Below are positions 3,487 through 24,010 of a stretch of 24,010 nt of DNA, piece by piece; positions within the stretch are counted from its first letter, which is position 1, and each line of letters opens with the position of its first letter. A program made the position numbers and the translations under genes. The stretch lies in the IMG/VR virus record IMGVR_UViG_2684622581_000006; one strand, given 5' to 3'. The notes under the pieces were generated by a model. That model made no database searches. It saw only the letters and a program-made list of their open reading frames with translations, and had not been told where the DNA came from. Source of the DNA: a virus. Its lineage: Duplodnaviria; Heunggongvirae; Uroviricota; Caudoviricetes.

Positions 3487-3532
3487 AGGGAAAGGTTGCC
3501 ATCAGGGGAAGAAAGCCGGCAGTGCTGCAACT

Positions 3533-3550
3533 TGTATCAGTGCTGATACA
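3533..3550. promoter_or_regulatory. Candidate late-promoter activator site (Ogr/Delta-type TGT-N12-ACA dyad) upstream of V
   Basis: Perfect dyad TGTATCAG-TG-CTGATACA in the S-V intergenic region, about 55 bp upstream of the V start codon; matches the TGT-N12-ACA consensus of P2-family late promoters. Coordinates +/- 2 bp. Confidence 0.5.
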
Positions 3551-3554
3551 AAGA

Positions 3555-5864: not shown

Positions 5865-6328
5865 CAGATAAGCTCCACTGTGCAGTGCGGCGCGTCCTGT
5901 ACCCGGCTGATGGCCCAGCGGGCGTCACGCCACAAATCACCGCTGGCTTCTGCCAGTTCCTCGCCCCGCTTCACACCGGATGCCGTGGTGTCATAGTCCT
6001 GGTATCGTTCGTTGAGCATGGCGCGTGCCCAACAGTAAACCGCGTTGAAATAGTGCTGAATGCGCTCACTTTTGCCGTCCAGCTGTTCCGCCGGAACCTC
6101 TGCCAGCGAGGCATACCCCAGCACCTGCTGGCGCCTGCGAAACTCATACAGCTCTGCGTTGACCTCCGAAATTGCCGACAGCGCAACCTGCTTTAAACGC
6201 GGCTGCGTCACCGTGCCGTCAGTGCGCATCACACTGCGAAACTCCGACAGGTCCACATCAGGCCAGAACGGCGTATTTCTGATGATTTCCGCCTGTTCCG
6301 GTGCCTGTTCTGGCGCAACAAACTTCAT
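5864..6328 (-). CDS. L: Head completion/stabilisation protein L
   Basis: ORF 5864-6391; internal start MKFVAPEQ (about 6328) is preceded by AGGAGAAA about 7 nt upstream. Position after M as in P2. Confidence 0.75.
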   Translation of the reverse strand: MKFVAPEQAPEQAEIIRNTPFWPDVDLSEFRSVMRTDGTVTQPRLKQVALSAISEVNAELYEFRRRQQVLGYASLAEVPAEQLDGKSERIQHYFNAVYCWARAMLNERYQDYDTTASGVKRGEELAEASGDLWRDARWAISRVQDAPHCTVELI

Positions 6329-6423
6329 GCTGCTTTCTCCTGAAATAGAGGGCGGTGGACGGGATTTTGATGTGGCAGTGCCTTTCGCCACCCCGTGCCG
6401 CCCGTGCGCGGGGGCACGTTCTG

Positions 6424-7074
6424 TCAGCGGCTGTCATTGCGCAGTCTGCGCTCCAGCTGCTGTTTGTCTTTTTTCACGCCACAGCGGGGATCGAGCTGTA
6501 ACGCATGGTTGAGATGATTAAGGGCGGACGCCGGATTGCTTTCACTCAGGACCGCGCCAATCGCTTTATGCAGACGTGCCCGTGACTGGTCCGGCATATC
6601 CAGACCGTCTGTCAGCTCCAGCGTCTGCAGCAACAGATCGGCATCAAAGCCGGTGGCGGCAAGCATTGCGCTCTGGGCTGCGTCTGCCATTTCCTCTGCC
6701 AGCACGGTCTGCACGTTGCGGTTACCCAGCGGCATCACCCAGCCATGACGCAGGGCATGACGCCCGATCTCCAGCGCCCCGGCATAATCTCCGGCATCAA
6801 TGCGCCACAGCATCACGTACATCAGCACGTCATCCTGTTGCGCGCCTCCGGCAGCCAGGACACCCTCCGCCCAGGCGGCGTACTTCGGCAGCAGCTCCAC
6901 CTTGATTTCCGCTTTTTTGACCGTGGACTGAACGCCCTTGAGACGGCGGCGGTCTTCCGCCAGTTGCAGCAGCATCAGGTCATAGCCCGACGCGTGGCGA
7001 ACACTGCCGCCCTCGCGGGCGGCCTGTTCAGCCTGAACGCGCAGGCGATGCTGCCGTGCGGGACTCAGGCTCAT
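6424..7074 (-). CDS. M: Terminase endonuclease (small) subunit M
   Basis: 216-aa ORF between N and L, as P2 gpM. Confidence 0.8.
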   Translation of the reverse strand: MSLSPARQHRLRVQAEQAAREGGSVRHASGYDLMLLQLAEDRRRLKGVQSTVKKAEIKVELLPKYAAWAEGVLAAGGAQQDDVLMYVMLWRIDAGDYAGALEIGRHALRHGWVMPLGNRNVQTVLAEEMADAAQSAMLAATGFDADLLLQTLELTDGLDMPDQSRARLHKAIGAVLSESNPASALNHLNHALQLDPRCGVKKDKQQLERRLRNDSR

Positions 7075-7077
7075 GAA

Positions 7078-8136
7078 TTACGCTCCGGTTTCTGCTGCAG
7101 CGGTGCTGAAATCGCCAATCTGGATGTTTTCCACCAGTGCGGCGCAGCGGTAGTCCTCAACCACATAGGCTTCGTTAACAGATTCAAAGTTTTCAATCCG
7201 GTCACGTTTCGGGTTGTCAATAACTGAACGGCGGCGGGTGTCTTCCTGCCAGTAGATGGACAGGTTATCCAGACGGGTGATCAGCAGCGCATTCGGCGGG
7301 AAGAACGGCGCACGCACGGCCTGCAGGCCCCCCATGCGTTTCTGACTGATGATCATATCGGCAGCCAGTTTTTCACTGTTTTCCTGCTCTTTGTTGACCA
7401 GCGGGAAATACTTGTCAGACAGCAGTTCACGCCCGCAAATCACCACCAGATCGTCATCGTCCTGGTAAACCACGTCGATAAGCTCATTGACGGCATCCAT
7501 CACTACGGCGTCCAGGTTGGCATATTCGCCACCTTTCCCGACTTTCACCGCACCCGGTGTGGTTTCACCACCCGTGGTGGTGCTGCCCATGACGTGATCC
7601 GGTGCATCCTCACGGATTTTCTGCAGCCAGCCTTTATTCACATCCTGCAGCAGCGGGTTTTCGCTACGGTTGGAGGTTTTCGCACGCTTCACGCCGTTAA
7701 AGCCGATCATGATGCGGTCCAGTGCCTGACGTTTCACGATGGCGTCACGGATACGCACCTGGAAATCCTGAAACTTCGCCCACAGGTCCAGCTTCGCGTA
7801 GGTCAGTACCGTGTCAAAGTTGGTCTGCTCGCATTTGTATTCCACATCGACCATCAGCGTAGGATCGACAGGTTCACGCTCTTTCGCGGTGGTGTCAGTG
7901 GTTCCGGCAATGGTGCTACCAACACCCAACCCCAGCAGCTGACCGGACTGCTCAGTCACTGGCGTGACGTTAATCAGCGTCAGGAAAGCGGCGGACTGTT
8001 GGATCTGGTCTTCCAGCGTCTGCTGTACAGACGGCTCCACGGTGAACTTGCTGGACAGTTCTTCAACTGCCACACCGTTCAGACGCGCCAGCTGCTGCAG
8101 GTAAGCGTTAAAAGCAAAGCGGGTATTCTTCTTCAT
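7078..8136 (-). CDS. N: Major capsid protein N
   Basis: 352 aa; strong recalled similarity to P2 gpN along the length (TRFAFNAYL..., KYECEQ.NFD, GFNGVKRA.TS.RS.NP.LQDV, ISQKR.G.L.AVR, DYVVEDY, GDFSTAA). Confidence 0.9.
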   Translation of the reverse strand: MKKNTRFAFNAYLQQLARLNGVAVEELSSKFTVEPSVQQTLEDQIQQSAAFLTLINVTPVTEQSGQLLGLGVGSTIAGTTDTTAKEREPVDPTLMVDVEYKCEQTNFDTVLTYAKLDLWAKFQDFQVRIRDAIVKRQALDRIMIGFNGVKRAKTSNRSENPLLQDVNKGWLQKIREDAPDHVMGSTTTGGETTPGAVKVGKGGEYANLDAVVMDAVNELIDVVYQDDDDLVVICGRELLSDKYFPLVNKEQENSEKLAADMIISQKRMGGLQAVRAPFFPPNALLITRLDNLSIYWQEDTRRRSVIDNPKRDRIENFESVNEAYVVEDYRCAALVENIQIGDFSTAAAETGA

Positions 8137-9128: not shown

Positions 9129-10895
9129 ATGAACACCACACTGACACCCGCAGATCTCGATCCCCGTCGGCAGGCCATGCTGCTGTACTTTCAGGGATAC
9201 CGCGTAGCCCGCATTGCTGAAATGCTGGGCGAGAAAGTTGCAACCGTTCACAGCTGGAAAAAACGCGACAAGTGGGGTGACTATGGGCCGCTGGATCAGA
9301 TGCAGCTCACCACCGCCGCACGCTACTGCCAGCTCATCATGAAGGAGCACAAAGAAGGGAAAGATTTCAAAGAGATTGACCTGCTGGCGCGCCAGTCTGA
9401 GCGCCACGCGCGGATCGGCAAGTTTAACAATGGCGGCAACGAAGCCGACTTAAACCCTAACGTCGCCAACCGCAACAAAGGCCCGCGCCGTCAGCCGGAA
9501 AAAAATGTCTTCACCGATGAACAGATTGAGAAGCTGGAAGAAATCTTCCATTCCTCCATGTTCAACTACCAGCGCCACTGGTGGGAAGCCGGAAAAACCA
9601 ACCGCATCCGCAACCTGCTGAAGTCACGCCAGATCGGCGCGACCTTTTACTTTGCCCGTGAAGCCCTGATTGACGCCCTGCTTACCGGGCGTAACCAGAT
9701 TTTCCTTTCCGCCAGTAAGGCACAGGCCCACGTCTTTAAGCAGTACATCATCGACTTCGCCAAAGAAGTGGAGGTGGAGCTGAAAGGCGATCCGATGGTG
9801 CTTCCTAACGGGGCCACGCTTTACTTCCTCGGCACCAATGCCCGCACTGCCCAGAGTTATCACGGCAACCTGTATCTGGATGAATATTTCTGGATACCGA
9901 AATTCCAGGAGCTGCGCAAAGTGGCTTCCGGTATGGCTATTCACAAGAAATGGCGACAAACCTATTTTTCCACGCCATCCAGCCTGACTCATAGTGCTTA
10001 TCCGTTCTGGTCCGGTGCGCTGTTCAACCGTGGGCGCAACAAAGCCGACAAGGTGGACATCGACCTGTCCCACAGCAATCTGGCCCCCGGCCTGCTGTGC
10101 GCAGACGGGCAATACCGCCAGATAGTCACCGTGGAAGATGCGGTGCGCGGCGGCTGTAACCTGTTCGACCTTGACCAGTTGCGCATGGAGTACAGCCCGG
10201 ACGAATACCAGAACCTGCTGATGTGCGAGTTTGTGGACGATCTCGCGTCCGTGTTCCCGCTCAGCGAGCTGCAGGCGTGCATGGTGGACAGCTGGGAAGT
10301 CTGGACCGACTTTCATGCACTGGCTCTGCGCCCGTTTGGCTGGCGCGAAGTGTGGATCGGTTATGACCCGGCAAAAGGTACGCAAAACGGCGACAGCGCC
10401 GGATGCGTGGTGGTGGCACCGCCAGCCGTGCCTGGTGGTAAGTTCCGCATTCTTGAGCGTCACCAGTGGCGCGGGATGGACTTCCGCGCCCAGGCTGACG
10501 CCATCAAAAAACTGACCGAGCAGTACAACGTGACCTACATCGGCATCGACTCGACCGGCGTCGGCCACGGGGTTTACGAGAACGTGAAAGCATTCTTTCC
10601 TGCCGTCCGGGAGTTTGTCTACAACCCCAACGTTAAAAACGCCCTGGTGCTCAAGGCCTACGACATTATCAGCCACCGCCGTCTGGAGTTTGACGCCGGA
10701 CACACCGACATTGCGCAGTCATTCATGGCAATCCGTCGCGCCACCACCGCCAGCGGCAACCGCCCGACCTATGAAGCCAGCCGCAGCGAAGAAGCCAGCC
10801 ATGCCGATCTGGCCTGGGCAACAATGCACGCACTGTTTAACGAACCGCTGCAAGGCGAGTCCGCCAATACCAGCAATATTGTGGAGATTTTTTGA
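9129..10895 (+). CDS. P: Terminase ATPase (large) subunit P
   Basis: 588 aa (P2 gpP is about 590); transcribed divergently from O and followed by Q with a 4-nt overlap, exactly as in P2. Confidence 0.9.
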   Translation: MNTTLTPADLDPRRQAMLLYFQGYRVARIAEMLGEKVATVHSWKKRDKWGDYGPLDQMQLTTAARYCQLIMKEHKEGKDFKEIDLLARQSERHARIGKFNNGGNEADLNPNVANRNKGPRRQPEKNVFTDEQIEKLEEIFHSSMFNYQRHWWEAGKTNRIRNLLKSRQIGATFYFAREALIDALLTGRNQIFLSASKAQAHVFKQYIIDFAKEVEVELKGDPMVLPNGATLYFLGTNARTAQSYHGNLYLDEYFWIPKFQELRKVASGMAIHKKWRQTYFSTPSSLTHSAYPFWSGALFNRGRNKADKVDIDLSHSNLAPGLLCADGQYRQIVTVEDAVRGGCNLFDLDQLRMEYSPDEYQNLLMCEFVDDLASVFPLSELQACMVDSWEVWTDFHALALRPFGWREVWIGYDPAKGTQNGDSAGCVVVAPPAVPGGKFRILERHQWRGMDFRAQADAIKKLTEQYNVTYIGIDSTGVGHGVYENVKAFFPAVREFVYNPNVKNALVLKAYDIISHRRLEFDAGHTDIAQSFMAIRRATTASGNRPTYEASRSEEASHADLAWATMHALFNEPLQGESANTSNIVEIF

Positions 10896-11920
10896 TGGGA
10901 AAGAGTAAGAAGAACCGCGCTGCGGCGACGAAACAGATCCAGCTTAAAAGTCAAACTACAGCCGAAGCATTCAGCTTCGGCGATCCCGTTCCTGTTCTGG
11001 ACCGCCGAGAACTGCTGGACTATGTGGAATGCGTACAGACAGATCGCTGGTATGAGCCGCCAGTAAGCTTTGACGGACTGGCGCGCACCTTCCGCGCCGC
11101 CGTGCATCACAGTTCACCAATTGCGGTGAAATGCAACATTCTGACCAGTACCTACATCCCTCACCCGCTGCTCAGCCAGCAGGCTTTTTCACGTTTTGTG
11201 CAGGACTATCTGGTATTTGGTAACGCCTACCTGGAGAAACGCACGAACCGCTTCGGTGAAGTTATCGCCCTTGAGCCTGCTCTGGCAAAATACACCCGAC
11301 GCGGGTTAGACCTGGATACCTACTGGTTTGTGCAATACGGTATGACAACCCAGCCGTATCAGTTCACGAAAGGCAGCATTTTTCATCTGATGGAACCGGA
11401 CATTAACCAGGAGATCTACGGCCTGCCCGGCTATCTTTCTGCCATTCCGTCCGCCCTGCTCAATGAGTCCGCCACGCTGTTCCGCCGCAAGTATTACATT
11501 AACGGTAGTCATGCAGGCTTCATCATGTACATGACCGATGCTGCGCAGAACCAGGAGGACGTGAACAACCTCCGCAATGCAATGAAAAGTGCCAAAGGTC
11601 CGGGTAACTTCCGCAACCTGTTTATGTACTCGCCTAACGGCAAAAAGGACGGGCTTCAGATTATCCCGTTGTCAGAGGTGGCGGCGAAGGATGAGTTTTT
11701 GAATATCAAGAACGTGAGCCGCGATGACATGATGGCTGCGCACCGCGTGCCGCCGCAAATGATGGGGATTATGCCTAATAATGTTGGAGGGTTTGGGGAT
11801 GTGGAGAAGGCCGCAAATGTGTTTGTGCGCAATGAACTTTTGCCATTACAGAAACGCATGGAGGAGTTAAACCATTGGCTGGGTGAGAAAGTTATTGCAT
11901 TTTCATCCTATTGTTTATGA
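10892..11920 (+). CDS. Q: Portal (capsid vertex) protein Q
   Basis: 342 aa (P2 gpQ is about 344); last gene before the cos region in P2-family genomes. Confidence 0.9.
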   Translation: MMGKSKKNRAAATKQIQLKSQTTAEAFSFGDPVPVLDRRELLDYVECVQTDRWYEPPVSFDGLARTFRAAVHHSSPIAVKCNILTSTYIPHPLLSQQAFSRFVQDYLVFGNAYLEKRTNRFGEVIALEPALAKYTRRGLDLDTYWFVQYGMTTQPYQFTKGSIFHLMEPDINQEIYGLPGYLSAIPSALLNESATLFRRKYYINGSHAGFIMYMTDAAQNQEDVNNLRNAMKSAKGPGNFRNLFMYSPNGKKDGLQIIPLSEVAAKDEFLNIKNVSRDDMMAAHRVPPQMMGIMPNNVGGFGDVEKAANVFVRNELLPLQKRMEELNHWLGEKVIAFSSYCL

Positions 11921-11930
11921 GATATAAATT

Positions 11931-11954
11931 GGTGGCCTTAATTATATAGCCACC
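11931..11954. terminator. Hairpin between convergent genes Q and the TIR gene (possible bidirectional terminator)
   Basis: GGTGGC-cttaattatata-GCCACC followed by ATATTGCTTTTTATTTT on the plus strand; the complementary strand also has a T-rich tract after the stem. Stem is short (6-7 bp). Confidence 0.4.
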
Positions 11955-11964
11955 ATATTGCTTT

Positions 11965-12777
11965 TTATTTTACTCTAAAGGCATCATCGGCTTTATGTGG
12001 TATAGGAGCATAACGCTCGGTACTTACTCGATGTAGCACCGCAAATATATTCAAAGGTGAACCATCCTTTAACCTAAGAGAAACATACATTGGCATCGTT
12101 GGTGTTAACCCCCGATTTAGGCCAACAGTGGCACCACTTACTTTCATACCATTTTCTAAAGATGCATTTTCAATAAACCCCTGAGTGAATGTGCTTTCTC
12201 CATTGACCATAACAACAACATCATCATGCTTAATTGTATTATCCATAATCATCATAAAATCAGCAATTGGTTCTAAAAAATCCATTGCTGATAATTTCAC
12301 TATCTTACCCCCATCACCATCCTTAATATCATAGGAGAGGTTTGAATACTTCTCAGGATTAGGAATATACGTATTTTGTTGATTAATGACATCTATAATT
12401 TGTCTTATTGCCACATCGATCCCATACGAATAAAGATCAATATATAGCGTTTGAGTAAGCAGAGCAGGCAAGGATATATTCTGGCAACGTATTGGTATAA
12501 ATTTACACTTCCCGGACGATGCCTTAATTAAAGCATTTTGCCATTCCATTTTTACCATGTTACTTGCCAAACTATTTTCTGTGACAAAAAAGAAAAAGAA
12601 CGATACATTCTCCATTCCTAAATTCATCTTGTCAATAATACCCTCTCCGGGTTGGATAGACCAAGAATCGTAGAATACGTTATCACGCCCATAAACATCT
12701 GCTAGTTTTTCCGCTATAACACTTACAAACCTTTTGTCACGGTGATTATGACTTAGAAAGATCATAGCATGCCCCAT
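11965..12777 (-). CDS. TIR-domain protein with about 135-aa C-terminal domain of unknown function (cargo; candidate anti-phage protein)
   Basis: N-terminus IFLSHNHRDKRF...FYDSWSIQPGEGI...FFFFFVTENSLASNMVKMEWQNA has the bacterial TIR hallmarks (F-x-S-H start, aromatic run, W-x-x-E helix with a candidate catalytic Glu near residue 78). Strongly AT-rich compared with flanking phage genes. Start could be M1 (12777) or M5 (12765). Confidence 0.75.
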   Translation of the reverse strand: MGHAMIFLSHNHRDKRFVSVIAEKLADVYGRDNVFYDSWSIQPGEGIIDKMNLGMENVSFFFFFVTENSLASNMVKMEWQNALIKASSGKCKFIPIRCQNISLPALLTQTLYIDLYSYGIDVAIRQIIDVINQQNTYIPNPEKYSNLSYDIKDGDGGKIVKLSAMDFLEPIADFMMIMDNTIKHDDVVVMVNGESTFTQGFIENASLENGMKVSGATVGLNRGLTPTMPMYVSLRLKDGSPLNIFAVLHRVSTERYAPIPHKADDAFRVK

Positions 12778-12846
12778 TAGAAATTAATGTGTAAGATCTG
12801 CGTAGAGAGTCACCGACAGTGTACCAATAATAATCTTCTGCGCGCA

Positions 12847-12865
12847 ATCGTATCCCCGCCACGCC
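12847..12865. other. Candidate cos (cohesive end) site, P2/186-type
   Basis: Reverse complement reads GGCGTGGCGGGGATACGAT, matching about 15/19 of the recalled 19-nt cohesive end of phage 186 (GGCGTGGCGGGGAAAGCAT) and P2 (GGCGAGGCGGGGAAAGCAC). It sits in a GC-richer non-coding stretch (12780-13065) on the expected side of Q. From memory only; coordinates +/- 2 bp. Confidence 0.4.
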
Positions 12866-13065
12866 TGCCCACTTTATGTAGTGGTTTTCATGCACCTGCA
12901 TGACATAAGCAAAAGCACGCCAGTTCTGGCTGGCATCAGCGAAAACGATCGTCATACTATCATGCGATCTCATGCGCCATATGAAGTTTTCCTGACACAG
13001 CCTTGGGTTGGGATAACACCTAACTCAGGAAGATTTTTTGTGTGTTTGTAACCCACACCTAGAGT

Positions 13066-14235
13066 TTACCAATCCATGTTTGCGGCATTATCCATCTCAC
13101 GAGTTAAGTAATTAACAAATAAGTCCATATTCCTTTCTGATTTCATCGCCTCCGCATAGGTTCCATTAGTTACGTAAGATAGTATTAAAGGACATCCAGA
13201 TTCAATATAAATTTTTGCTGGGGACAGTTCTCCCTGCCACAAATTTTCAAGAAAATCGTTAATTAATTGCATTGCTTCAGGTGCCAAAAAATGCACACCA
13301 TTTCCAAACTTGAAACGTTCTTTATTTTCTCGATGAGGCAGCAATAGTGGCACAGCCCCTACACTTGAGTGAAATTCCAATGCTTGCCCATCCTTACCGA
13401 AGGCGCCATGGGCTACAAAATTACGCACCTGTTTTCTGAGTATAAGTAAACGATCATAGAACAATTTTAGACTGGAAGAGTTAATATCAATGGCTAATTT
13501 GAATTTCTCCCCCCATTCTTTTCCAACTTTATCAGCCACATCATTCCCATTTTTTATCTCACCCTTCAAGATTGCAATAAGAATGAAAACATGCTCGGTC
13601 CAATTGAAAAATGACTCAATTGCAGACGTTGCTAACCACATAGCCTCTCTTCGGAGTTCAATTATCTTATTTGATTGTTCAAAAGTGGATTGTAACAGGC
13701 TGAAAAAATTATCAGACTTAAACTCACTATCAACTTCCAGTTTAGACTCTTGGCCAGCAGCAACTTCATCAAGCTTCTGTTTATATAGCTCTAAAAAATA
13801 GCAAAACCTATCATAAAGAGAATTAGCATTGTTATTAACATTTAGATTTGAAGTCTTTGCTGCATTGTCTGCAAGCGAGTCAAAAAAATTCGTAGCAGCT
13901 TTAACCCCTGCGCAAATATGTCTCAAAACAATTTTAGCTTGCTCTATATCATCATCACTCTTGATAAATATATCTAAACCAAGTTTACGATGTTCTATAA
14001 TTACGACAGTCCCATCAATCCGGACTGGGATAGAAAAAGAAATCTTCTCATCAACCCCACGATTTTTAAATTTCAGTAAATCTACCAAAAGAAAATAAAC
14101 GAGATAATACGGAGGTAATGAGTCTCCCAAACCCGAGCGCTTACCCCAAAAATATTCATCAAGCTCGGCAGACTCCATTGTCCCTATGACTCTTCGGACG
14201 CGTTCTTCAACTTTAGCCAGATCCATTCCCCACAC
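13066..14235 (-). CDS. Hypothetical 389-aa protein with HEPN-type R-N-x-x-A-H-G motif (cargo; candidate nuclease effector)
   Basis: Long AT-rich ORF between A and cos at the position where P2 carries old/tin. Contains LRKQVRNFVAHGAF (R271..H276), a canonical Rx4H HEPN signature. No further family recognised by eye. Confidence 0.6.
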   Translation of the reverse strand: MWGMDLAKVEERVRRVIGTMESAELDEYFWGKRSGLGDSLPPYYLVYFLLVDLLKFKNRGVDEKISFSIPVRIDGTVVIIEHRKLGLDIFIKSDDDIEQAKIVLRHICAGVKAATNFFDSLADNAAKTSNLNVNNNANSLYDRFCYFLELYKQKLDEVAAGQESKLEVDSEFKSDNFFSLLQSTFEQSNKIIELRREAMWLATSAIESFFNWTEHVFILIAILKGEIKNGNDVADKVGKEWGEKFKLAIDINSSSLKLFYDRLLILRKQVRNFVAHGAFGKDGQALEFHSSVGAVPLLLPHRENKERFKFGNGVHFLAPEAMQLINDFLENLWQGELSPAKIYIESGCPLILSYVTNGTYAEAMKSERNMDLFVNYLTREMDNAANMDW

Positions 14236-14396
14236 CGCCTTTCAATATCACTTAAGGTATTACAGCCAATGACATCGATTAAATACAGCGTAGATAATAG
14301 GCAACTTGCTACTGTTTTCAAGGGCTTTCTGTTTCAATCCTTAGTTGACCTTGCTGACGCGAGAATCTAGTTCTCACGCCAGCAACGCCCCTGCTG

Positions 14397-14585
14397 CTAA
14401 CCGAGAAGATCCATTACACGGTTATATTCATGGGCACGAATTTTCGCCATCAACTCATCAGTCAGCTCTGAAACCCACTGCAGAGCCAGCCCCTTCTCTT
14501 CATCACTACACTCACTAGCCGCTACAAGCTTAAGAAAAAAATCAATGCGCTGGAGCTTCAAAGACTCCAAAAAATAGTCCTGCAT
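14397..14585 (-). CDS. Small acidic hypothetical protein (about 62 aa)
   Basis: ORF 14397-14687; internal start MQDYFLESL is preceded by an AGGAGG Shine-Dalgarno about 5 nt upstream. Lies between the A stop and the 389-aa gene. Confidence 0.45.
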   Translation of the reverse strand: MQDYFLESLKLQRIDFFLKLVAASECSDEEKGLALQWVSELTDELMAKIRAHEYNRVMDLLG

Positions 14586-14738
14586 TTTTCCTCCTATGAC
14601 ACCACAAGCAATACTGTATGCATAACCACTGTTTATATTTACAGTATATAATAATCTTACTGATGTAAAACGTTTTTTTACGTTCATCAGCCTGATATGC
14701 CTGGTATTATTAAGAGCACGAATTGTTAATCCGCGTAA

Positions 14739-17153
14739 TTAATACAGGTTCCGCCACTTATCATCTTCCCACAAACGCTGGTTCCGATAGAAGATACGCA
14801 AGCCTGCTCCTGACGGAATACTGCCGCCGCGAAGGAGTAAATCGACCTCTTTCTCGCTGCCATCAAATCCTCTGGACTTCAGCTCATAGACGAGCTGCAG
14901 TCGCTGATGGTCTGTAATTCGCTGTTTGTAGTCTTTACGCCGTTTCGGTTTAACCAGGCGTAACCTTGCTGCCAGTTCCCGGCGCTCTTTTTTGCTCATA
15001 CTGTGCAGGTAATCGTGCAACTCCTTGTCATCCATGCGGGTAATGTCCGTTCTGGTGTCCCCATCAGCTGATTTATCTTTCTCCTGTTGGTTCAAATTTT
15101 CAGCAAGGGGACAGTTATTGCCACGAGTCCAAGGGGCGCAAGTGCCCTGGTCGGCTGCCGCCTCCTGAACGTCAACGGCCTTACGAACCATTTTCCACTT
15201 CACTGCATGAGTGCAGATCTTGCCCTCTGCAATGGGTGACCAGATGCCATAAATACGAATACCGTGATCGCCATAGGCGGTTGGCTCTTCGTTGATTTCA
15301 TAAGCGGTTCTGATGAGGTGATATTTGCGGGGAACCAGTACGCCGCCCTGCTTCATGATGTAGGTGGCAAAACAACCAGCATCAGCAGCAGCCAGGATGG
15401 CATCAAGGCGCGGGTTATCCAGTACCGGCGCACCTGCTTTTTTGTCACCCTGTTGCCTTGCCGCCTGACCAGCCAGCAATCGCAGTTCACGGTAAGCCTG
15501 ACGCCCCGGAATGCCAAAGAAGCGGAATTGCTGAACACGATGCAGAGACGCCCAGGCATTAACGTATTCAGCGTTATCACGCAGGGATTTACCCGTTTCC
15601 TTACTGATCTCGCCAGCCAGACCACGCCCGTCAATATTCTTACTGATATATTTCGCAATGTAGCTTGTCGGCGTTCCTTTGCGCGGGTTTATCAGCTCAG
15701 ACTTAAAGCGTGGCCCCGTGTTATTGCCCAGCTCCTCGCGGTCTTCACGGATGGCAAACTTACGCAACAATGCAGTAATGGCGCGGCGCTCTTTTTTGCG
15801 CATGAAACACAACAGGTGCCAGTGAACTGTGCCGTCATGATGCGGCTCAGCCACCCGCACGCCATACCAGCGCAACCCGGCTTTGTGCATAGCCTTACGA
15901 AATGCAGCAAACATGCCGACCAGATAATCGCTGCTTTGTCTTACTGTCGCGTTGGTCCAGGTCGGGTTTGGCCTGCCGTTATTTAGCGTGGAATGGAAAC
16001 GTGACGGACAGGTGATGGTGTAGAAAACGGCGCAGTCACCACGCATTTCCGCGATAAGCTCCAGGCCTTTAACACAGGCCATCATCTCATTGCGGCGATG
16101 CGCCGGGTTGCTGCTGCTGGCGTTTACCACATCCTCCATGTTCAGCGTGTCGCCGTCTTCGTTCACCAGTTCATGAGAACGGAAAAACTCCAGCGACTTA
16201 CGGCGCTGCTCACGTTTATGCATCACGGCTTCATAGCTGACATAGGGAGATGCTTTTTTGCTGACCAGGCTGACAGCACGCAACTGCTCTTCCCGCCATT
16301 CGCAACGCATCTTCCATAATTTCCGATACCACCAGTCGGCGCACAGCATACGCGCCAGCGAACCCGGAATGAGTTCATAGGGCACAGGTTTGCGGCGGTT
16401 TCTTTTCCGGCGGAGTTGCTCAAACGCAGGCGGTATGACATCCAGTCGCAGGGTTTCTGCAGCCACCTTTTCCCATGTCTTGCGGATTTCTTCTGGCTTA
16501 ACATCATCGGAGGCGTACAAATCACCACAAGCGGCATCAAGACACATGCTCATATGCGCAGCGACAAGGGTAGACAGGCGTTTCACCTGATCCTGACTCA
16601 TTTCAGGCAGGATCAGCAGACCGTCCAGCCCTTCATGGCTTGCCATAAAACGAAAAGATGCAGATAGCTGGCTGTCGCGTACATGCTCCAGTCGTTCCAG
16701 ACATGGCTTAATCGTCTCACGCAAATAGCGGGAATAAGCCTTTGGCCTGCCCAGGCTGCTGAAATATTCAATACGTTGCATCAGCGGCTTGCTGATATGG
16801 GAAGGCTGGGCGTTGACGTCGGCCAGAATGACCATGTCCGGATTAAAACGCTGCTGCTCATGCGCCATCTTTGCCCGGCTAATGAGCTTATCCTGCTCCA
16901 TTTCGCGTTGGACAGGATCACGGGATTCATTAAAGAAATAACGCTCCCAGACCTGATCACTCAGTGCCTCGCGGCGCAGTTGTTCCTGCTCGTTATCAGT
17001 AGCGTACAGAGTGATCAGGTTTGAAAGCGCAGAAACCGGCGCAACTTCCGCCGGGTCCAGATAAGGGTTAATGGCCTTTTTCGGGCTGTTCCATGAGAAT
17101 GCTGCGGCGACCTCGTTAAAGCCGCTGCAGTTGTTCATATCAGCATGGCTCAT
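14739..17153 (-). CDS. A: Replication initiation protein A (rolling-circle nickase)
   Basis: 804 aa; HUH-like motif (TVHWHLLCF) and the YIAKYISK tyrosine motif typical of P2 gpA-family initiators; preceded by dam with overlapping stop/start. Confidence 0.9.
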
Positions 17154-18007
17154 GCACGCACTCCGTACACGGCAGAACTATCCACGCCACGCGAAGGATC
17201 AAATCCCACCCAGCAGCGCGGCCCGGAAACAGCGATGATTTCTGTTGCAGATTTACTCTCACCAGCTGCTACACCGATGCTGCGTTTTGCCTTGATGTAG
17301 TGGTGAGTAAAATTGCGATACAGCGAACGGATCAGGGATGTATCACTGTTAGAAACAATGACCGGATGTCCTTCTGATGACCGATGTTCAAGAACGGATG
17401 CCAGGTGATACTGGTCATCTTCAGTGAAACCATCAGTGTGATAGCCGGAAAACGTACCGTCATACGGCGGATCGCAATACACCACATCCCCCACCTGCAG
17501 CATCGCCAGCGTTTCATCAAAGCTTGCGCAGATAAACGTTGCACGCTGGGCTTTCTCTGCAAATGCGCGAATTTCTTTTTCAGGGAAATACGGATTTTTA
17601 TAATTACCGTACGGAATGTTGAAACGCCCGCTCTTGTTATAGCGACATAATCCACGGTAACCATGACGATTGAGATACAGGAAATATACCGCTTTCATGA
17701 AATCAGTAATTTCAGTGGAGTAATTAAACTCCTGCCTTATGTTGTAATAAGCCACCTCCCTGTTTGCGATCTCAAATAAAACTCTGCCGCGAGATATAAA
17801 CGATTCACAATCAGCGGCAACCTTTTTATAGAGGTTGATTAAATCAGGATTAATATCCGCAACCAGATAGCTGGGGTAATCCGTCTCCATCATCACAGCA
17901 CAGGAACCCGCGAAAGGTTCAACCAGTCGCGGGCCAGCAGGAAGGTGTTTTTTCAGTTCGGACATAATGGCGGTTTTATTTCCCGCCCATTTCAGGATGG
18001 TGCTCAT
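17150..18007 (-). CDS. dam: DNA adenine methyltransferase (Dam-like, N6-A)
   Basis: ORF 17150-18067, likely start at [11 protein letters not shown]; motif [11 protein letters not shown] and motif IV DPPY (VYCDPPYDG) present. Confidence 0.85.
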
Positions 18008-18231
18008 ACAGCACCTCCGTTGTAATGTTTGCCTTTCAGCTCTGCGATTTCCTGACAGGTAATGCAAAGCTGCACACCTGGAATGGCGCGGCGGCGTGCT
18101 GGCGGAATTGGCGCTTCACACTCAATGCAAAGCACGCGGGACACGCCCGGCGTTTTGGCACGGGCAGCACGGATATGGCGCTGGCGTTCTTCTTCAACGC
18201 GCTGCTGTACGAGATCCATTGCATCAGCCAT
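18004..18231 (-). CDS. TraR/DksA-family C4 zinc-finger protein
   Basis: 75 aa with C-x2-C-x17-C-x2-C (CIECEAPIPPARRRAIPGVQLCITCQ); small zinc-finger genes occur at this position in P2-like early operons. Confidence 0.65.
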   Translation of the reverse strand: MADAMDLVQQRVEEERQRHIRAARAKTPGVSRVLCIECEAPIPPARRRAIPGVQLCITCQEIAELKGKHYNGGAV

Positions 18232-18470
18232 TAGTGGATCTCCTGCGCTTCGTTCTGGATTGCTTCAGCAGTTACACGCAGTAGTTCTGCTGCTTCGACG
18301 TGGTTTAGCTGGCGGGATGTGATATGACACGCCAGGCTATCAAGGCGAGCTGCCATTGCTTCAGCCCTTGCCCGGCGTTCTTCCAGACGAGCCTCTGTCA
18401 GTAAAATATTAAGCCCAGCATCATCCGGTCCGGTTTTAGTCGTGAGGGTTTCAATATTACGCATAATCAA
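18231..18470 (-). CDS. Hypothetical early protein (79 aa)
   Basis: ORF packed in the early operon, 1-nt overlap with the downstream gene; no family recognised. Confidence 0.45.
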   Translation of the reverse strand: MIMRNIETLTTKTGPDDAGLNILLTEARLEERRARAEAMAARLDSLACHITSRQLNHVEAAELLRVTAEAIQNEAQEIH

Positions 18471-18531
18471 TTCTCCTGAATTTAGATAAAGGGATGCCCG
18501 GCGGGTTTACGCCATGATTTTCATTAATTGG

Positions 18532-18873
18532 TTAATTCGGCATGGTTAGCCGTCTGGGAAATAAGCTCACCACTGCACGAAAATGATTCATTGCTTTAAT
18601 CAGCTCCCGCTTTTCGTCAGTGGTCAGCTCATTAATGCTGATGCTATGACGTTCAGCTGGAATTTTTGCCATAAAGAATATGGCAGCCAGTGCTCGTTTA
18701 TTTTGTTCGTTATTGATATCCCGTGGATCACGCATATCTTTAATAAACCGCTCAAGCTCTGACTCAATATTCAGGCCAAATACTTTCGCCCTTAACTCCG
18801 CAATGTGATTAAGTCCATTCAGGCGTTCACCGGGGCTTAATGGAACAGTCGCCGCAGCGCCATTAATTGCCAT
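18532..18873 (-). CDS. Hypothetical early protein (113 aa)
   Basis: ORF in the early operon between CII and dam; no family recognised. Confidence 0.45.
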   Translation of the reverse strand: MAINGAAATVPLSPGERLNGLNHIAELRAKVFGLNIESELERFIKDMRDPRDINNEQNKRALAAIFFMAKIPAERHSISINELTTDEKRELIKAMNHFRAVVSLFPRRLTMPN

Positions 18874-18895
18874 AATTCATATCCCCAAAACGCAA

Positions 18896-19120
18896 CTATC
18901 GTTCTTTGTTCTTACGGTAACGTTCAAGAGGAGATACATTTTTTCGTATCGTCTCTTTAACCTGCTCTCCCCGTAAAAACGTCCCATCCCTTAGCGTGAA
19001 AAAGTAACTGCCATCGCCCGACAACGACGGATAACAACAGAGCAAATCATCTTCAGGTACTGAATAACTCTCCCCTCTGTAACGAAACTGATAAACCACT
19101 TCACTTTCCGCTGCATACAT
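18896..19120 (-). CDS. Hypothetical early protein (74 aa); alternative overlapping frame 18991-19287 also plausible
   Basis: Two ORFs in different frames overlap here; the second begins at an ATG (MLTKEPSFAS...) about 10 nt after the CII stop. Cannot decide which is translated. Confidence 0.3.
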   Translation of the reverse strand: MYAAESEVVYQFRYRGESYSVPEDDLLCCYPSLSGDGSYFFTLRDGTFLRGEQVKETIRKNVSPLERYRKNKER

Positions 19121-19294
19121 TTTGACTTTCTCCGTTTCCCCGTGGTCAATTCAGACAGCAATTCATCTTGTGAACGGCACGGATGCCAGCGTTTACCATC
19201 CTCACCCATGATCCAGCCGTGACCGTAGTGCATTGCCGGGCTTTGTTTTACCAGCAGCGATGCAAATGATGGTTCTTTCGTCAGCATAAGCACC

Positions 19295-19804
19295 TCACAG
19301 CAAACCGAATGAAGCACCGAGGCCAGTCACGGTATCAACTGCACTCGCCATCGCAGGATTAGCCTGTAAACGGGCCTGCAATGAAACAGCCGCCAGCGCC
19401 ATCAGTCGTGTTACAGAGTTAATGCTGCTGATAGCATCACGACGACCTGCACTGGTTTTTACATCGCCAGATACCGCACCTGCAGCAACACGCCCGATCT
19501 CTGCGGTTGCACTCATGACGTAATGTGGCAGTTTCTCTTTTGCCACCTCATTAATTGGTACGCATGGCAGGCAGTGAATCTGTGCCAGAAAGCCATCTAC
19601 CAGCGTTGAATCTTCAGTCAGATCGGTAAGCAGCCAGATTTCTGGTGCGGTTAATAAATGAGGTTGAGCTGGATTCAGCTTGTTCCGCAGAATCTGCACT
19701 TTCATGCCTGCACGTTCTGCCAGTTGCACCAAGTTGTGGCGCAATGCAAATGCACGACATGCTTCATCAAAATGTGGATGTTTGGAAACTTGATAATCAA
19801 ACAT
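19295..19804 (-). CDS. cII: CII-like lysogeny-establishment regulator (186 CII family)
   Basis: ORF 19295-19858; start at [12 protein letters not shown] gives 169 aa, the length of 186 CII; position right after apl; sequence recalled as phage regulatory CII (CP76) type. Confidence 0.65.
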
Positions 19805-19836
19805 AGTCGACACCCCTGATACATCCCAAAATGGAA

Positions 19837-20058
19837 CTAGTTGAATACAACATTGCAATCAGTAAGTGCATCAACGGTAAGAGCAGCAAGGTTGATCATT
19901 ACCTTTTCTCTTTTTTTGTCTTTACGAAGACGATGCCGAGGGATGCGACCATCTGCCAGCATATCGTTGATTGTGTCGATTGAAAGACCAGTAAGTTCGC
20001 TATAACGCTCGATTGTGACGTGTGGTGTATTCAGAGTTATTGAAATGTTAGGGGTCAT
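19837..20058 (-). CDS. apl: Apl/Cox-like excisionase-repressor (small HTH protein)
   Basis: ORF 19837-20139; start at [10 protein letters not shown] (about 20058) is preceded by AGGAG about 10 nt upstream; 73 aa, first gene of the lytic early operon, divergent from the repressor gene. Confidence 0.6.
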
Positions 20059-20146
20059 GATGCAACATCTCCTTTTAGCTTGTGGTGAGCTGGTTTTAAT
20101 CGTGATAACAACATCACAAAACGGAGAATAGGTTCGCATAAAGAAT
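20059..20146. promoter_or_regulatory. Lysis-lysogeny switch region (early lytic and repressor promoters, operators)
   Basis: 88-bp region between divergent apl and the CI-like gene; contains the inverted repeat GTGAT-aacaac-ATCAC (about 20102-20117), a candidate operator. Promoter elements not resolved. Confidence 0.35.
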
Positions 20147-21097
20147 ATGTCAACTCAAAAATTCACATTTCGCCATATGAATGACGATATGAAAGCCGCT
20201 GTCATACAGAATCGCGGTGGTCAGAAAGTAATTGAGCGGATCCTCATGGCTTATGGCTTCAAGTCACGCCAGGCATTCTGTAATCACCTAGGTATTTCCC
20301 AAAGCACGATGGCTAACAGATATGCCCGCGATACATTTCCAGCAGATTGGGTTGTTATCTGCTCGATGGAGACAGGCGCATCAATTGAATGGCTAGCATT
20401 TGGTTCAGGTGTTAAAGAAAGAATGTCATCTTCTTCACTAGAACAACATGCTGAAAAACAAACCGAAGATGGACTTTGCGACAAAGTTCACTCTTCCCCC
20501 ACTCTGTTCGATAATGAAATCCACATGAATTTCACTCATGGAGGAAAAGCAGTAATAGAACGAATTGTTGAAGCTTACGGTTACAAGACACGTCAAGCCT
20601 TAGCTGATCACCTTGGTATTTCAAAAAGCACGTTAGCCACACGATATATGCGTGATACTTTTCCTGCTGATTGGGTAATTCAGTGTGCTATCGAAACAGG
20701 AGTATCCATCACGTGGTTAGCCTTTGGGAAAGGAGATAAAATAGAAAAAAATAGCAGTTTAAACTGTATAAATATACCAAAGTTTACTCTAAATAATGCA
20801 AAATTAATTGAGAGCGGGAACTCGATATTTGATAAAAATCTGTTACCTGAAAATACGATATTTCCTTGTTTGATTGAAAATGTAAATAACTTTTACATTT
20901 GTGAAAAAAGATTCAATAATATTATTGATGGCGAGTGGATCGTTGGTATTGATGGAGATATCAGTATTCGAACAATCACTAAATTACCTAATGAAAAAAT
21001 TCAAGTAAAAAATAAAAACATAGTTTTTGAATGTTCAATAAACGAAATCGAATTTATTGCAAAGATCGTATTATCCATTAATAATGTTAGAGGTTAA
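20147..21097 (+). CDS. cI: CI-like immunity repressor with two tandem HTH (186 CI-type) domains and an AT-rich C-terminal domain
   Basis: 316 aa. Two homologous segments (VIERILMAYGFKSRQAFCNHLGISQSTMANRYARDTFPADWVVICSMETGASIEWLAFGSG and VIERIVEAYGYKTRQALADHLGISKSTLATRYMRDTFPADWVIQCAIETGVSITWLAFGKG) recalled as the 186 CI N-terminal HTH fold; divergent from apl-cII. Confidence 0.65.
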   Translation: MSTQKFTFRHMNDDMKAAVIQNRGGQKVIERILMAYGFKSRQAFCNHLGISQSTMANRYARDTFPADWVVICSMETGASIEWLAFGSGVKERMSSSSLEQHAEKQTEDGLCDKVHSSPTLFDNEIHMNFTHGGKAVIERIVEAYGYKTRQALADHLGISKSTLATRYMRDTFPADWVIQCAIETGVSITWLAFGKGDKIEKNSSLNCINIPKFTLNNAKLIESGNSIFDKNLLPENTIFPCLIENVNNFYICEKRFNNIIDGEWIVGIDGDISIRTITKLPNEKIQVKNKNIVFECSINEIEFIAKIVLSINNVRG

Positions 21098-21098
21098 A

Positions 21099-22253
21099 AT
21101 GACTGACAGCAATTATATCAATAATAATTCTCTTGAGGACACAATAGAGATAATCGAAGAAGAACAGAACGATTCTTACTCAAATGATGATTTATACAAT
21201 ATAAACTCATGGGGGGCCGATTTATCTTTTAGAGAACTTATTACAATGTATGATGAGGGCGAACTTCAGAAACCAGAACTTCAAAGAAATTATGTTTGGG
21301 ATAAAGTCGAAGCCAGTAGATTTATAGACTCATTATTGCTAGGTCTTCCTGTTCCGAGTATTTTTTTAGCAAATACGTCTGACGAAAACAAACTCATTAT
21401 AGATGGTTTTCAGAGAATCATGACTGTCTATGATTATGTGACAGGTATATGGTCAAAAGATAGTAGAGTCTTTAAACTTTCCGATAGTAGAAAAATTAAT
21501 GCAAAATGGCGTGGTAAGGCCTTTAATGAACTTACAGTTTCAGAAAAAAAGAAAATTCGCTCAACAACTATACACGCTATAATCTTTGAGCAAACCGTTC
21601 CGTCGAACGATGATACTAGCCTATATCAAATTTTTGAGCGTATAAATACTGGTGGACGTTCACTAATGGCTCAAGAAATACGTAATTGCGTATATCAAGG
21701 GAAATTAAATACTCTATTGATAGAACTAAACAATAATATCAAATGGCGTACTTTATTCGGTTCTAATAAACCAGATGCACGAATGAGAGATATGGAATTC
21801 ATTCTAAGAGGCTTGGCTCTTAACACGCAGAAAATAAAGAGTCATGAACCAGCAAATATTTCTCTAAAAAAACTCCTTAATGAATATATGGGTGATAAAG
21901 CAAATAACACCTCTGACATGATCGACACCATTAAAACCGATTTTGAAAACACCATTAATTTTATTCATGATAATATAGGACCAGATGCATTCTTTAATAT
22001 AATCCAATCAGATCCATCACGTATACGTCGTCGTTTTTATCCAACCATTTTTGATGCATTATATGTCGCAACATCCATTGCATTAAATTCAGGTGAAGAC
22101 ATAAACACTAACGATCTAGAGCATAAAAGAAATGAGTTACTACAAAATCAGACATTTCGGTCACATATCACATCTGGTACAATGCAGATAGAAAATATAC
22201 ATGGAAGAATTTCAATGGCACTGGAGTTTCTTTATGGCATTCAATATCGTTAA
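21099..22253 (+). CDS. DUF262 (ParB/Srx-like, GmrS-type N-terminal domain) protein (cargo; candidate defence component)
   Basis: ORF 21057-22253; start at MTDSNYINN (ATG about 21099) is preceded by GAGG and begins 1-2 nt after the cI stop. Contains LQRNYVWDK and IIDGFQRIMT, matching the DUF262 F/YQR.YVW and DGQQR signatures. Very AT-rich. Confidence 0.7.
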   Translation: MTDSNYINNNSLEDTIEIIEEEQNDSYSNDDLYNINSWGADLSFRELITMYDEGELQKPELQRNYVWDKVEASRFIDSLLLGLPVPSIFLANTSDENKLIIDGFQRIMTVYDYVTGIWSKDSRVFKLSDSRKINAKWRGKAFNELTVSEKKKIRSTTIHAIIFEQTVPSNDDTSLYQIFERINTGGRSLMAQEIRNCVYQGKLNTLLIELNNNIKWRTLFGSNKPDARMRDMEFILRGLALNTQKIKSHEPANISLKKLLNEYMGDKANNTSDMIDTIKTDFENTINFIHDNIGPDAFFNIIQSDPSRIRRRFYPTIFDALYVATSIALNSGEDINTNDLEHKRNELLQNQTFRSHITSGTMQIENIHGRISMALEFLYGIQYR

Positions 22254-22869
22254 TAATAATGCTAAAAATAGCATTATAGATTGTTTAAAGGAACTTGAGA
22301 GTATAGAGAAGATGATAGAATCTTCTGGCCCCACTACAACTATTGTTAAATATTTAACACGATATTCAATTATTAGAACCTGCGGAACCATTGAATATTC
22401 TTTCAAAACAATCATTAGCGATCATAAATATGATCAACATAGTGAACAAATACAAAGATTCATTGATGAAAAATTCAGAAATAGTTCAATGAACCCTAAT
22501 TACGATAATATTTGTAAGGCACTTGGTTCATTTGATAATAACTGGTGTAACAACTTTAAGGACAAAATCAAGAACGATCCGCACTCAAATAAATTACGTG
22601 ATTCGTTGAAATCTTTAAATAGAGCCAGAAATGATTTCGCTCATGGAAAAAGCCCCACAGTATCATTTCAATATATTTTCGACTATTTTATAGATAGTGT
22701 AGCCATTATTCAGAAGATGGAGTCATCAATACTTGATTTAGAAGCGACAAATACGAATATTGGATTAACTAAATCTAACGACCGAGATAATACATTTTCT
22801 GATTTAGTTAATAATTCACAAAGAAATATCGCTAATGACCCTGAAAATAATTTAAGAGCAGATTTATAG
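22234..22869 (+). CDS. Hypothetical protein with HEPN-type R-N-x-x-A-H-G motif (cargo; candidate nuclease partner of the DUF262 protein)
   Basis: ORF 22201-22869; start at MAFNIVNN (about 22234) is preceded by GGAG about 10 nt upstream and overlaps the DUF262 stop by about 20 nt. Contains LNRARNDFAHGKSP. AT-rich. Confidence 0.6.
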   Translation: MAFNIVNNNAKNSIIDCLKELESIEKMIESSGPTTTIVKYLTRYSIIRTCGTIEYSFKTIISDHKYDQHSEQIQRFIDEKFRNSSMNPNYDNICKALGSFDNNWCNNFKDKIKNDPHSNKLRDSLKSLNRARNDFAHGKSPTVSFQYIFDYFIDSVAIIQKMESSILDLEATNTNIGLTKSNDRDNTFSDLVNNSQRNIANDPENNLRADL

Positions 22870-22957: not shown

Positions 22958-24010
22958 ATGGCAGTACGAAAACTCACCACAGGGAAATGGCTTTGCGAAT
23001 GTTACCCCGCCGGACGTAGTGGGCGTCGTGTGCGTAAACAATTCGCCACTAAAGGCGAAGCTCTGGCTTTTGAGCGTCACACGATGGAAGAAACCGAAGC
23101 AAAGCCCTGGCTGGGCGAACCAGTGGATCGTCGGACATTGAAAGACGTGGTTGAGCTATGGTTCAAACTACATGGTAAATCTCTGACAGCTGGGCAGCAT
23201 GTCTATGGCAAACTGCTGTTGATGGTTGACGCTCTGGGCAATCCCCTTGCAACCGATCTCACCTCTAAAATGTTTGCCCACTATAGAGATAAACGCCTGA
23301 CAGGAGAGATCTACTTCAGCGAGAAATGGAAGAAAGGAGCAAGCCCGGTCACCATTAACCTGGAGCAAAGCTATCTAAGTAGTGTTTTTAGCGAACTATC
23401 CCGCCTGGGCGAATGGTCGTATCCGAACCCACTGGAGAACATGCGAAAATTCACCATCGCAGAAAAAGAAATGGCATGGCTTACCCATGAGCAGATTGTT
23501 GAACTGCTGGCTGATTGCAAACGTCAGGACCCAATTCTGGCACTGGTAGTCAAGATATGCCTAAGCACAGGCGCACGTTGGCGAGAAGCAATAAATCTTA
23601 CCCGCTCGCAAGTGACCAAATACCGAATTACCTTTGTAAGAACGAAGGGGAAGAAAAACAGAAGCATCCCTATCAGTAAAGAGCTTTACGAAGAGATCAT
23701 GGCGCTTGATGGGTTCAATTTCTTCACAGACTGCTATTTTCAATTTTTATCCGTGATGGAAAAAACGTCTATCGTGCTCCCTCGCGGTCAACTGACACAC
23801 GTTCTGCGCCATACGTTTGCGGCGCACTTCATGATGTCGGGTGGAAACATCCTGGCCTTACAAAAAATTCTCGGACACCACGATATAAAAATGACTATGC
23901 GTTACGCACATCTGGCACCGGATCATCTGGAAACGGCGCTCCGTTTCAATCCTCTGGCAACATTGCCAAGTGGCGACAAAGTGGCGGCAGCGGTTGGCAT
24001 TACCCCGTAA
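22958..24010 (+). CDS. int: Tyrosine integrase (P2/186 family site-specific recombinase)
   Basis: 350 aa; catalytic signature ARWREA ... LTHVLRHTFAAH ... HHDIKMTMRYAHL (R, H-x-x-R, Y). The stop coincides with the window end, so attP/attL lies just outside. Confidence 0.9.
   Translation: MAVRKLTTGKWLCECYPAGRSGRRVRKQFATKGEALAFERHTMEETEAKPWLGEPVDRRTLKDVVELWFKLHGKSLTAGQHVYGKLLLMVDALGNPLATDLTSKMFAHYRDKRLTGEIYFSEKWKKGASPVTINLEQSYLSSVFSELSRLGEWSYPNPLENMRKFTIAEKEMAWLTHEQIVELLADCKRQDPILALVVKICLSTGARWREAINLTRSQVTKYRITFVRTKGKKNRSIPISKELYEEIMALDGFNFFTDCYFQFLSVMEKTSIVLPRGQLTHVLRHTFAAHFMMSGGNILALQKILGHHDIKMTMRYAHLAPDHLETALRFNPLATLPSGDKVAAAVGITP

Follow-up and report, generated by a model that had tools for sequence, protein, structure and literature searches.

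A stand-alone HEPN-family gene, a separate TIR gene and a PD-T4-2-like pair as cargo of a P2-like prophage of Escherichia coli

The virus record IMGVR_UViG_2684622581_000006, a stretch of 24,010 nucleotides (nt) that we call the window, is a P2-like prophage in Escherichia coli DNA, recognised by Pfam from its P2-type terminase, portal, gpA, CI and integrase genes; the minus strand also encodes baseplate and capsid proteins and the small terminase, and there is a CII gene. The GC content of its backbone is 55-58%, and two stretches have a foreign composition, at 11.9-14.4 kb (36-43% GC) and at 20.4-22.9 kb (30-35% GC). They coincide with the two hotspots of an earlier reading of this DNA (the original prediction), one between gpA and the portal gene, which is a well-known hotspot, and one between CI and the integrase gene (CI-int). 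Inside each lies a gene for a protein with an R-N-x-x-A-H-G motif of the HEPN type: a 386-amino-acid (aa) protein at the first and a 211-aa protein at the second (RefSeq lengths, for 13066-14226 and 22234-22869; the figures of 389 and 222 aa are those of the longest mechanical open reading frames, ORFs). The original prediction saw two HEPN-plus-partner pairs here, one with a TIR-domain gene and the other with a DUF262 gene. We find instead that the prophage holds three separate cargo modules at its two variable sites, namely the TIR gene, the gene for the 386-aa protein, and a PD-T4-2-like pair (Table 1).

Table 1. Features of the window, with the cargo modules first and the prophage genes that border them after.
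Feature	Position	Strand	Remark
386-aa stand-alone HEPN-family protein (WP_032248694.1)	13066-14226	-	RefSeq; longest ORF (GTG start) to 14235 = 389 aa
N-terminal alpha/beta domain of the 386-aa protein, residues 1-130, TBP-like/KA1-like fold	13837-14226	-	
Helical C-terminal part of the 386-aa protein, residues ~170-386, contains the HEPN domain	13069-13719	-	
R268-N-F-V-A-H273-G274, HEPN Rx4H motif of the 386-aa protein	13405-13425	-	
DUF262/GmrSD_N (ParB-like NTPase) protein, 384 aa, gene A of the PD-T4-2-like pair	21099-22253	+	start from RefSeq
RiboL-PSP-type HEPN protein, 211 aa, gene B of the PD-T4-2-like pair	22234-22869	+	
R-N-D-F-A-H-G, HEPN Rx4H motif of the 211-aa protein	22627-22647	+	
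TIR-domain cargo gene, 266 aa (WP_000576799.1), between cos and portal gene	11965-12765	-	Pfam TIR_2 1.3e-22
cos site between the 386-aa gene and the TIR gene	12847-12865	-	
Terminator-like hairpin, 3' of the 386-aa gene, before cos and the TIR gene	12917-12936	-	consensus scan only
Large terminase	9129-10895	+	
Portal gene	10892-11920	+	
Replication protein gpA	14739-17153	-	
D12-class N6-adenine DNA methyltransferase (Dam type), early operon, adjoins gpA	17150-18067	-	
CI repressor, 186-type, left border of the CI-int cargo site	20147-21097	+	Pfam Phage_CI_repr, Phage_CI_C
Integrase, right border of the CI-int cargo site	22958-24010	+	Pfam Int_N, Phage_integrase

Across all six reading frames of the window, R-N-x-x-A-H-G occurs at these two sites only. 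When the residues of each protein were shuffled 200,000 times, the pattern arose by chance with a frequency of ~1e-4 (389 aa) and 3.5e-5 (222 aa), and the looser R-N-x-x-x-H arose in 2-3% of shuffles. The plus-strand motif had been placed exactly; its minus-strand counterpart was given as 13408-13425, one codon (3 nt) short of its full extent. Among 32 homologues of the 386-aa protein (43-67% identity) R268, N269, H273 and G274 are invariant, and R-N-x-x-[AST]-H-G is retained in 79 of the 81 family ORFs that we collected from 80 species-level genomes. In the family of the 211-aa protein (33 homologues), R132, A136, H137 and G138 show no variation, and conservation of N133 reaches at least 90%. 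Both motifs are held by selection.

The 386-aa protein belongs to a large and uniform family. We found 1245 homologues, nearly all of 380-400 aa, all annotated as 'hypothetical' and without a Pfam domain, which reduce to 982 representatives at 50% clustering; they occur in at least 172 species-level genomes, from Proteobacteria, Nitrospirota, Acidobacteriota, Chloroflexota, Cyanobacteria, Bacteroidota, Chlorobiota, Actinomycetota and Patescibacteria. The longer members (430-633 aa) have extensions that again contain no Pfam domain. Searches of Pfam, PADLOC 2.0, NCBIfam and PHROGs with the 386-aa protein returned no significant match, the family profile matched nothing among all PDB sequences at E values up to 10, and we found no literature text for the accession, which appears only as 'hypothetical' in a supplementary list of Rousset et al.

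The AlphaFold model of the 386-aa protein (predicted local distance difference test, pLDDT, 84) combines an N-terminal alpha/beta domain, presumably a sensing or nucleic-acid-binding domain, with a helical C-terminal part. R268-H273 stands at the C-terminal end of helix 251-276, with a loop after it and two short helices (227-245) inserted ahead; HEPN motifs are located at just such a helix end before a loop (PMC3710099). A motif away from a HEPN helix-turn would have refuted the original prediction; in the model the motif ends the helix, and this check therefore does not refute it. The model is similar in structure to solved HEPN domains, and its matches include TTHA0636, YutE, AF0298, TT1696, Cas13b, Las1, LsoA, the sacsin HEPN domain and MtlR. 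A HEPN protein is recognised by an Rx4-6H motif with a polar residue (N, D or H) after the arginine and by similarity to solved HEPN domains, and the 386-aa protein has both. On its sequences and its predicted model, the family can be assigned to the HEPN superfamily. In its members the Rx4H motif is immediately followed by an invariant FGK..(E/Q)A..FHS..GAVP..LP block, and the C-terminus is a near-invariant A-N-M-D-W/F (13066-13083); these two elements could form the contact surface of a dimer, contribute a second part to the active site or act in autoinhibition.

The two motif-bearing proteins had been thought unrelated outside the motif, and pairwise and profile alignment had been proposed as the check. 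BLASTP aligns them weakly, over a single stretch of 37 residues (E 0.15). By contrast, profiles of the two families align in hhalign over 89 columns (E 2.6e-4, score 36.8), and over the HEPN columns with E 9e-5 when the C-terminal half of the 386-aa profile is used as the query; the alignments span 40-89 columns, and control scores (a reversed profile and 30 column-shuffled profiles) did not exceed 17.2. Besides pairing the two RNxxAHG motifs, hhalign pairs 'AIE.FF' with 'GTIE.SF' and 'W..KFK' with 'W...FK', the acid of the paired IE being the upstream acidic residue of HEPN domains. Because this homology extends beyond the motif over the HEPN domain, the shared RNxxAHG is probably the signature of one HEPN clade in two architectures, not a repeated independent invention, and the description of the proteins as unrelated has to be given up. 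The clade would be the Abi2/Swt1/RiboL-PSP group of Anantharaman et al. (PMC3710099). Within it, the 211-aa protein is a full-length member of the RiboL-PSP HEPN family (PF18735). The 386-aa protein resembles that family in RNxxAHG, the upstream acidic 'IE' and 'W..KFK' as seen by profile-profile alignment, but it has no PF18735 match, carries the N-terminal alpha/beta domain and a long conserved post-motif insert, and has no ParB/DUF262 partner. Both motifs are genuine HEPN Rx4H motifs, as first proposed, to judge by the Pfam RiboL-PSP match of the 211-aa protein and by the fold and the position at the end of helix 3 in the 386-aa protein.

At the CI-int site, the DUF262 gene (gene A) and the gene for the 211-aa HEPN protein (gene B) overlap by 20 nt, and the CI stop codon lies 1 nt before the start of gene A. 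Gene A matches Pfam GmrSD_N (E 2.7e-26) and PADLOC PD-T4-2_A (2.1e-55), and the DUF262 motifs QRxxxW, DGxQR and FxxxN can be followed in its translation as LQRNYVW, DGFQR and FERIN. Gene B matches Pfam HEPN_RiboL-PSP (PF18735; E 2.4e-19, 70.4 bits against a cut-off of 28.4) over profile positions 2-190 of 191, a domain carried by 64 of 64 homologues of the 211-aa protein, and it also matches PADLOC PD-T4-2_B (E 1.6e-8); sequence searches gave no solved structure for the product of either gene. An overlapping GmrSD_N gene of 376-389 aa always stands directly 5' of the HEPN gene at 5 places in 3 distant lineages (Pectobacterium, a metagenomic lineage with three of the places, and a third distant lineage), so the DUF262 partner proposed for the small HEPN protein is real and conserved. 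The architecture has been published. PD-T4-2 was described as 'DUF262, HEPN' from ECOR65, and its action against T4 was validated with the system on a plasmid and again by deleting it from its native strain (PMC9519451); in addition, an operon of RiboL-PSP HEPN with ParB was tabulated in 2013 (PMC3710099), so the pair is not new. From the Pfam and PADLOC matches, the gene overlap, the recurring pairing and this published architecture, we assign the CI-int pair to PD-T4-2 as a putative anti-phage system of an already known kind. It shares with the pair of Vassallo et al. (2022) the order of a DUF262/GmrSD_N gene and then an overlapping small HEPN gene with RNxxAH, the match to both PADLOC models and the location on an E. 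coli mobile element; it differs in the length of the operon (1771 bp, against 1540 bp in ECOR65) and in an extra tail of ~45 aa on the HEPN protein.

CI-int has been described as a cargo site of P2 relatives for the Vibrio K139-like phages (PMC9122126). Elsewhere in E. coli, P2-like prophages have one hypothetical gene (324 aa) at this site in place of the DUF262-HEPN pair (in EC6563, at locus positions 2005-2979), and CI-int is therefore a variable cargo site in E. coli too. The CI repressor at its left border has 316 aa, with two Phage_CI_repr helix-turn-helix stretches and a CI C-terminal domain, and looks by its domain matches like a repressor with a duplicated DNA-binding head. The CI-int interval is 100% identical to E. 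coli strain CE0011b and the gpA-portal interval 100% identical to strain S43. The 386-aa gene and the PD-T4-2-like pair never occur together in a set of 5426 complete E. coli genomes; the gene combination of the window is therefore rare, as independent shuffling predicts. Exact matches to the accessions HCQ4534369 and HCQ4534380 suggest a draft E. coli assembly, not included in that set, as the origin of the window.

Outside E. coli, the gene of the 386-aa family keeps no constant company. We surveyed 80 loci from different species of more than 10 phyla and counted genes by neighbour family: tyrosine integrases (8), serine recombinases (4), HsdM (4) and HsdS (4) are the commonest, and no family exceeds 8. 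Most members are chromosomal and outside prophages, next to integrases, type I restriction-modification (R-M) genes or hipBA. In Thalassospira hipBA precedes the gene, in Aeromonas an HNH gene does, and in Bacterioplanes and Plastoroseomonas it stands alone, while in some genomes family members are attached to type I R-M operons in a PrrC-like manner. In Klebsiella, 13 nt separate a 61%-identical homologue (locus positions 6001-7185) from the hsdR gene of a preceding hsdMSR operon, and the homologue is followed by a 440-aa protein that has no Pfam or PADLOC match.

These neighbourhoods bear on the reading of the 386-aa protein as a toxin of the RnlA/LsoA (RNase LS) type, kept in check by a small protein or RNA antitoxin that was not annotated. 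Toxins of this type have an anti-phage role; like the 386-aa protein they join one or more TBP-like alpha/beta domains to a C-terminal HEPN ribonuclease (RNase), and they are among its weak structural matches. However, there is no sequence match to the RnlA or LsoA families, the 386-aa protein has one N-terminal domain where they have two, and no antitoxin gene adjoins it. The 1.4-kb cassette that holds the gene offers no second credible ORF, and no conserved small neighbour recurs in the 80 loci, which speaks against a protein antitoxin; nor does the cassette contain tandem repeats or an Rfam match, which speaks against an RNA antitoxin of the type III toxin-antitoxin kind, as for AbiF. We consider such a toxin unlikely.

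It is likewise improbable, in our judgement, that the 386-aa protein serves the phage itself, in RNA processing, host takeover or anti-defence, and gives the lysogen no protection. The gene is phage-borne, and its RNase activity, its trigger and its part in defence are what we infer, not what was observed here. Yet the cargo tested so far from the gpA-gpQ hotspot of P2, where it is located, is mostly defensive (PMC9122126, PMC9519451), and the chromosomal setting of most of the family points away from a phage function. Matches to the flanks were found in more than 1100 P2-like prophages, of which only 10 carry the gene, so the phage can do without it.

In the window, cos separates the 386-aa gene from the TIR gene. 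The gpA-portal hotspot is made up of two cargo sites that are split by cos and shuffle independently. The cos site reads GGCGTGGCGGGGATACGAT followed by TGCGCGC, where the annotated cosL of P2 reads GGCGAGGCGGGGAAAGCAC followed by TGCGCGC. With cos between them, the two genes lie at opposite ends of the virion DNA: the 386-aa gene takes up the tin/old position on the right, and the TIR gene is inserted on the left, in the interval from cosL to the portal gene (only 187 nt long in P2 itself). They come to lie side by side only when the DNA is circular or integrated. A count over the 5426 complete E. coli genomes gave 10 with the 386-aa gene and 9 with the TIR gene, always with at least 99.5% identity; both are present in 3 of the 16 genomes with either, the 386-aa gene alone in 7 and the TIR gene alone in 6. 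Loci with the TIR gene only share positions 11800-12981 of the window, and those with the 386-aa gene only share 12839-14800. Both kinds of locus share the 143 nt around cos (12839-12981), a segment found in 623 of the 5426 genomes; it could serve as the point of recombination when cassettes are exchanged. The cassette unique to the 386-aa gene runs from about 12982 to 14408 (1.4 kb), with the backbone resuming at 14409, and contains one real ORF. In other strains this gene is next to a 557-aa protein or, in the loci of Rousset et al., to three other hypothetical genes, and the TIR gene is next to a divergent DUF4145/PD-T7-4-like gene, a 111-aa ORF, or a restriction endonuclease fragment with an ASCH gene.

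The original prediction had made the TIR gene the partner of the 386-aa protein. A single two-gene system, for example a Thoeris-like one in which a nucleotide signal from the TIR protein is read by the N-terminal domain of the 386-aa protein, would agree with the position of the genes on the same strand, 300 nt apart, with weak ThsB-like matches of the TIR protein, with an N-terminal domain of no assigned family that could bind a ligand, and with the occurrence of the TIR gene elsewhere near another HEPN-class gene, the DUF4145/PD-T7-4-like one. However, that gene is divergent from the TIR gene and matches a validated single-gene system, the TIR gene has other companions besides, there is no ThsA-like effector near it, and a terminator-like hairpin as well as cos stands between it and the 386-aa gene. 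A phmmer search with the TIR protein found no TIR match in any of the 80 family loci. Low co-occurrence, different cassette boundaries, the intervening cos and the lack of TIR in these loci mean that the TIR gene is not the partner of the 386-aa protein, and we regard a Thoeris-like pair as highly improbable. The 386-aa gene is a stand-alone, mobile gene.

The TIR gene is itself stand-alone cargo and always adjoins the portal gene. Its product has TIR_2 in residues 1-120 and a C-terminal part of ~150 aa that matches nothing; by sequence, the closest solved TIRs are those of a TPR/TIR protein (9m0n), the CRISPR-associated Cat1 and AbTIR. The 557-aa protein takes the place of the TIR gene in 7 E. 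coli genomes (for example in strain 1283, minus strand, locus positions 2234-3907) and has no Pfam match and a weak PADLOC match to DitB (2.5e-10); its gene is a further candidate among the cargo of the hotspot. A mechanical ORF of 75 aa (12746-12973, minus strand), absent from RefSeq, spans cos and matches phrog_28685 with an E value of 1e-24; the members of this PHROG may be spurious ORFs that overlie conserved cos DNA.

Taken together, these observations favour, with a probability of roughly 0.7, a P2-like prophage that carries a PD-T4-2-like pair, a stand-alone 386-aa HEPN gene and a separate TIR gene. At CI-int, the DUF262 protein would sense phage DNA and the HEPN protein would be the effector, a metal-independent RNase with the active site R-N-x-x-A-H. 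The 386-aa protein would be a self-contained and normally silent RNase, with its HEPN site controlled or targeted by the N-terminal domain or by the conserved stretch that follows the motif. Infection would set off RNA cleavage by this protein and so lead to abortive infection. The gene on the portal side of cos is a separate TIR-domain gene. By analogy, the best-supported mechanism for the 386-aa protein would be that of a single-polypeptide HEPN RNase with a non-catalytic sensing or targeting domain. Such an arrangement is known from RnlA/LsoA and from the single E. coli polypeptides DARNA (PD-T7-3) and PD-T7-4, of which DARNA, a HEPN tRNA anticodon nuclease switched on by single-stranded phage DNA bound by SSB (bioRxiv 10.64898/2026.02.22.705581), is the best functional analogy. 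The 386-aa protein is not DARNA, in which HEPN is N-terminal and followed by a Pds5-like C-terminal domain, and PD-T7-4 differs from it as a Zn-finger and DUF4145 protein; the PADLOC models of DARNA and PD-T7-4 do not match the 386-aa protein. The link to type I R-M systems, seen after hsdR in Klebsiella and with HsdM or HsdS in 4 of the 80 loci, recalls the PrrC/RloC anticodon nucleases, but the 386-aa protein lacks their ABC-ATPase N-terminal domain, and the linkage is occasional and absent in the window.

Several points weigh against this reading. The case for the 386-aa family is built on sequences and a predicted model, and it asks for a constitutively encoded RNase to stay silent without an antitoxin. 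No curated HEPN hidden Markov model scores above threshold for the 386-aa protein (the best, Csx1_HEPN, reaches E 0.05 and 14.5 bits against 23), 31 other family members scanned singly gave no Pfam HEPN match, and the hhalign probability between the two HEPN families is 43-59%. The invariant post-motif block (residues 274-311) is the sole low-confidence part of the model, with pLDDT below 50 at residues 276-297 (13336-13401), so the active-site geometry and any dimer cannot be read from it. As for the CI-int pair, the match of gene B to PD-T4-2_B is moderate, and gene A scores higher against NsnA of Menshen (1.4e-65) than against PD-T4-2_A. Menshen requires the NsnB ATPase and the NsnC effector (PMC12065111); only two genes lie between CI and int, neither encodes an ATPase, and NsnB and NsnC are absent, so a Menshen (NsnABC) identity was rejected. 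A reading in which the two heptapeptides agree by chance or by convergence, and the 386-aa protein is helical but without catalytic activity, would suit the silence of the curated HEPN models and a Foldseek search of its model against PDB that gave coiled-coil noise alone (E > 0.1), but the homology beyond the motif makes this a very poor prospect.

With the prophage read as a carrier of three independent modules, what is new is a widespread protein family assigned to the HEPN superfamily, encoded as a single-gene cassette and absent from the defence catalogues searched; the CI-int pair is already published as PD-T4-2. Few components of defence systems are as common as HEPN effectors, and P2-like prophages are known reservoirs of them; in these respects the finding is expected. 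A conserved HEPN protein was nevertheless missed by Pfam, PADLOC 2.0, NCBIfam and PHROGs, and was listed only as 'hypothetical' in an earlier survey of P2 hotspots. It is conceivable, at somewhat less than even odds, that the 386-aa protein founds a widespread single-gene anti-phage family, in which a TBP-like sensing domain would be joined to a RiboL-PSP-like HEPN RNase that stays silent until infection. For the reading of such loci, the fact that two genes adjoin within a phage hotspot says little about whether they are partners, and the 1.4-kb cassette of the 386-aa gene is a well-defined and easily cloned candidate defence gene.

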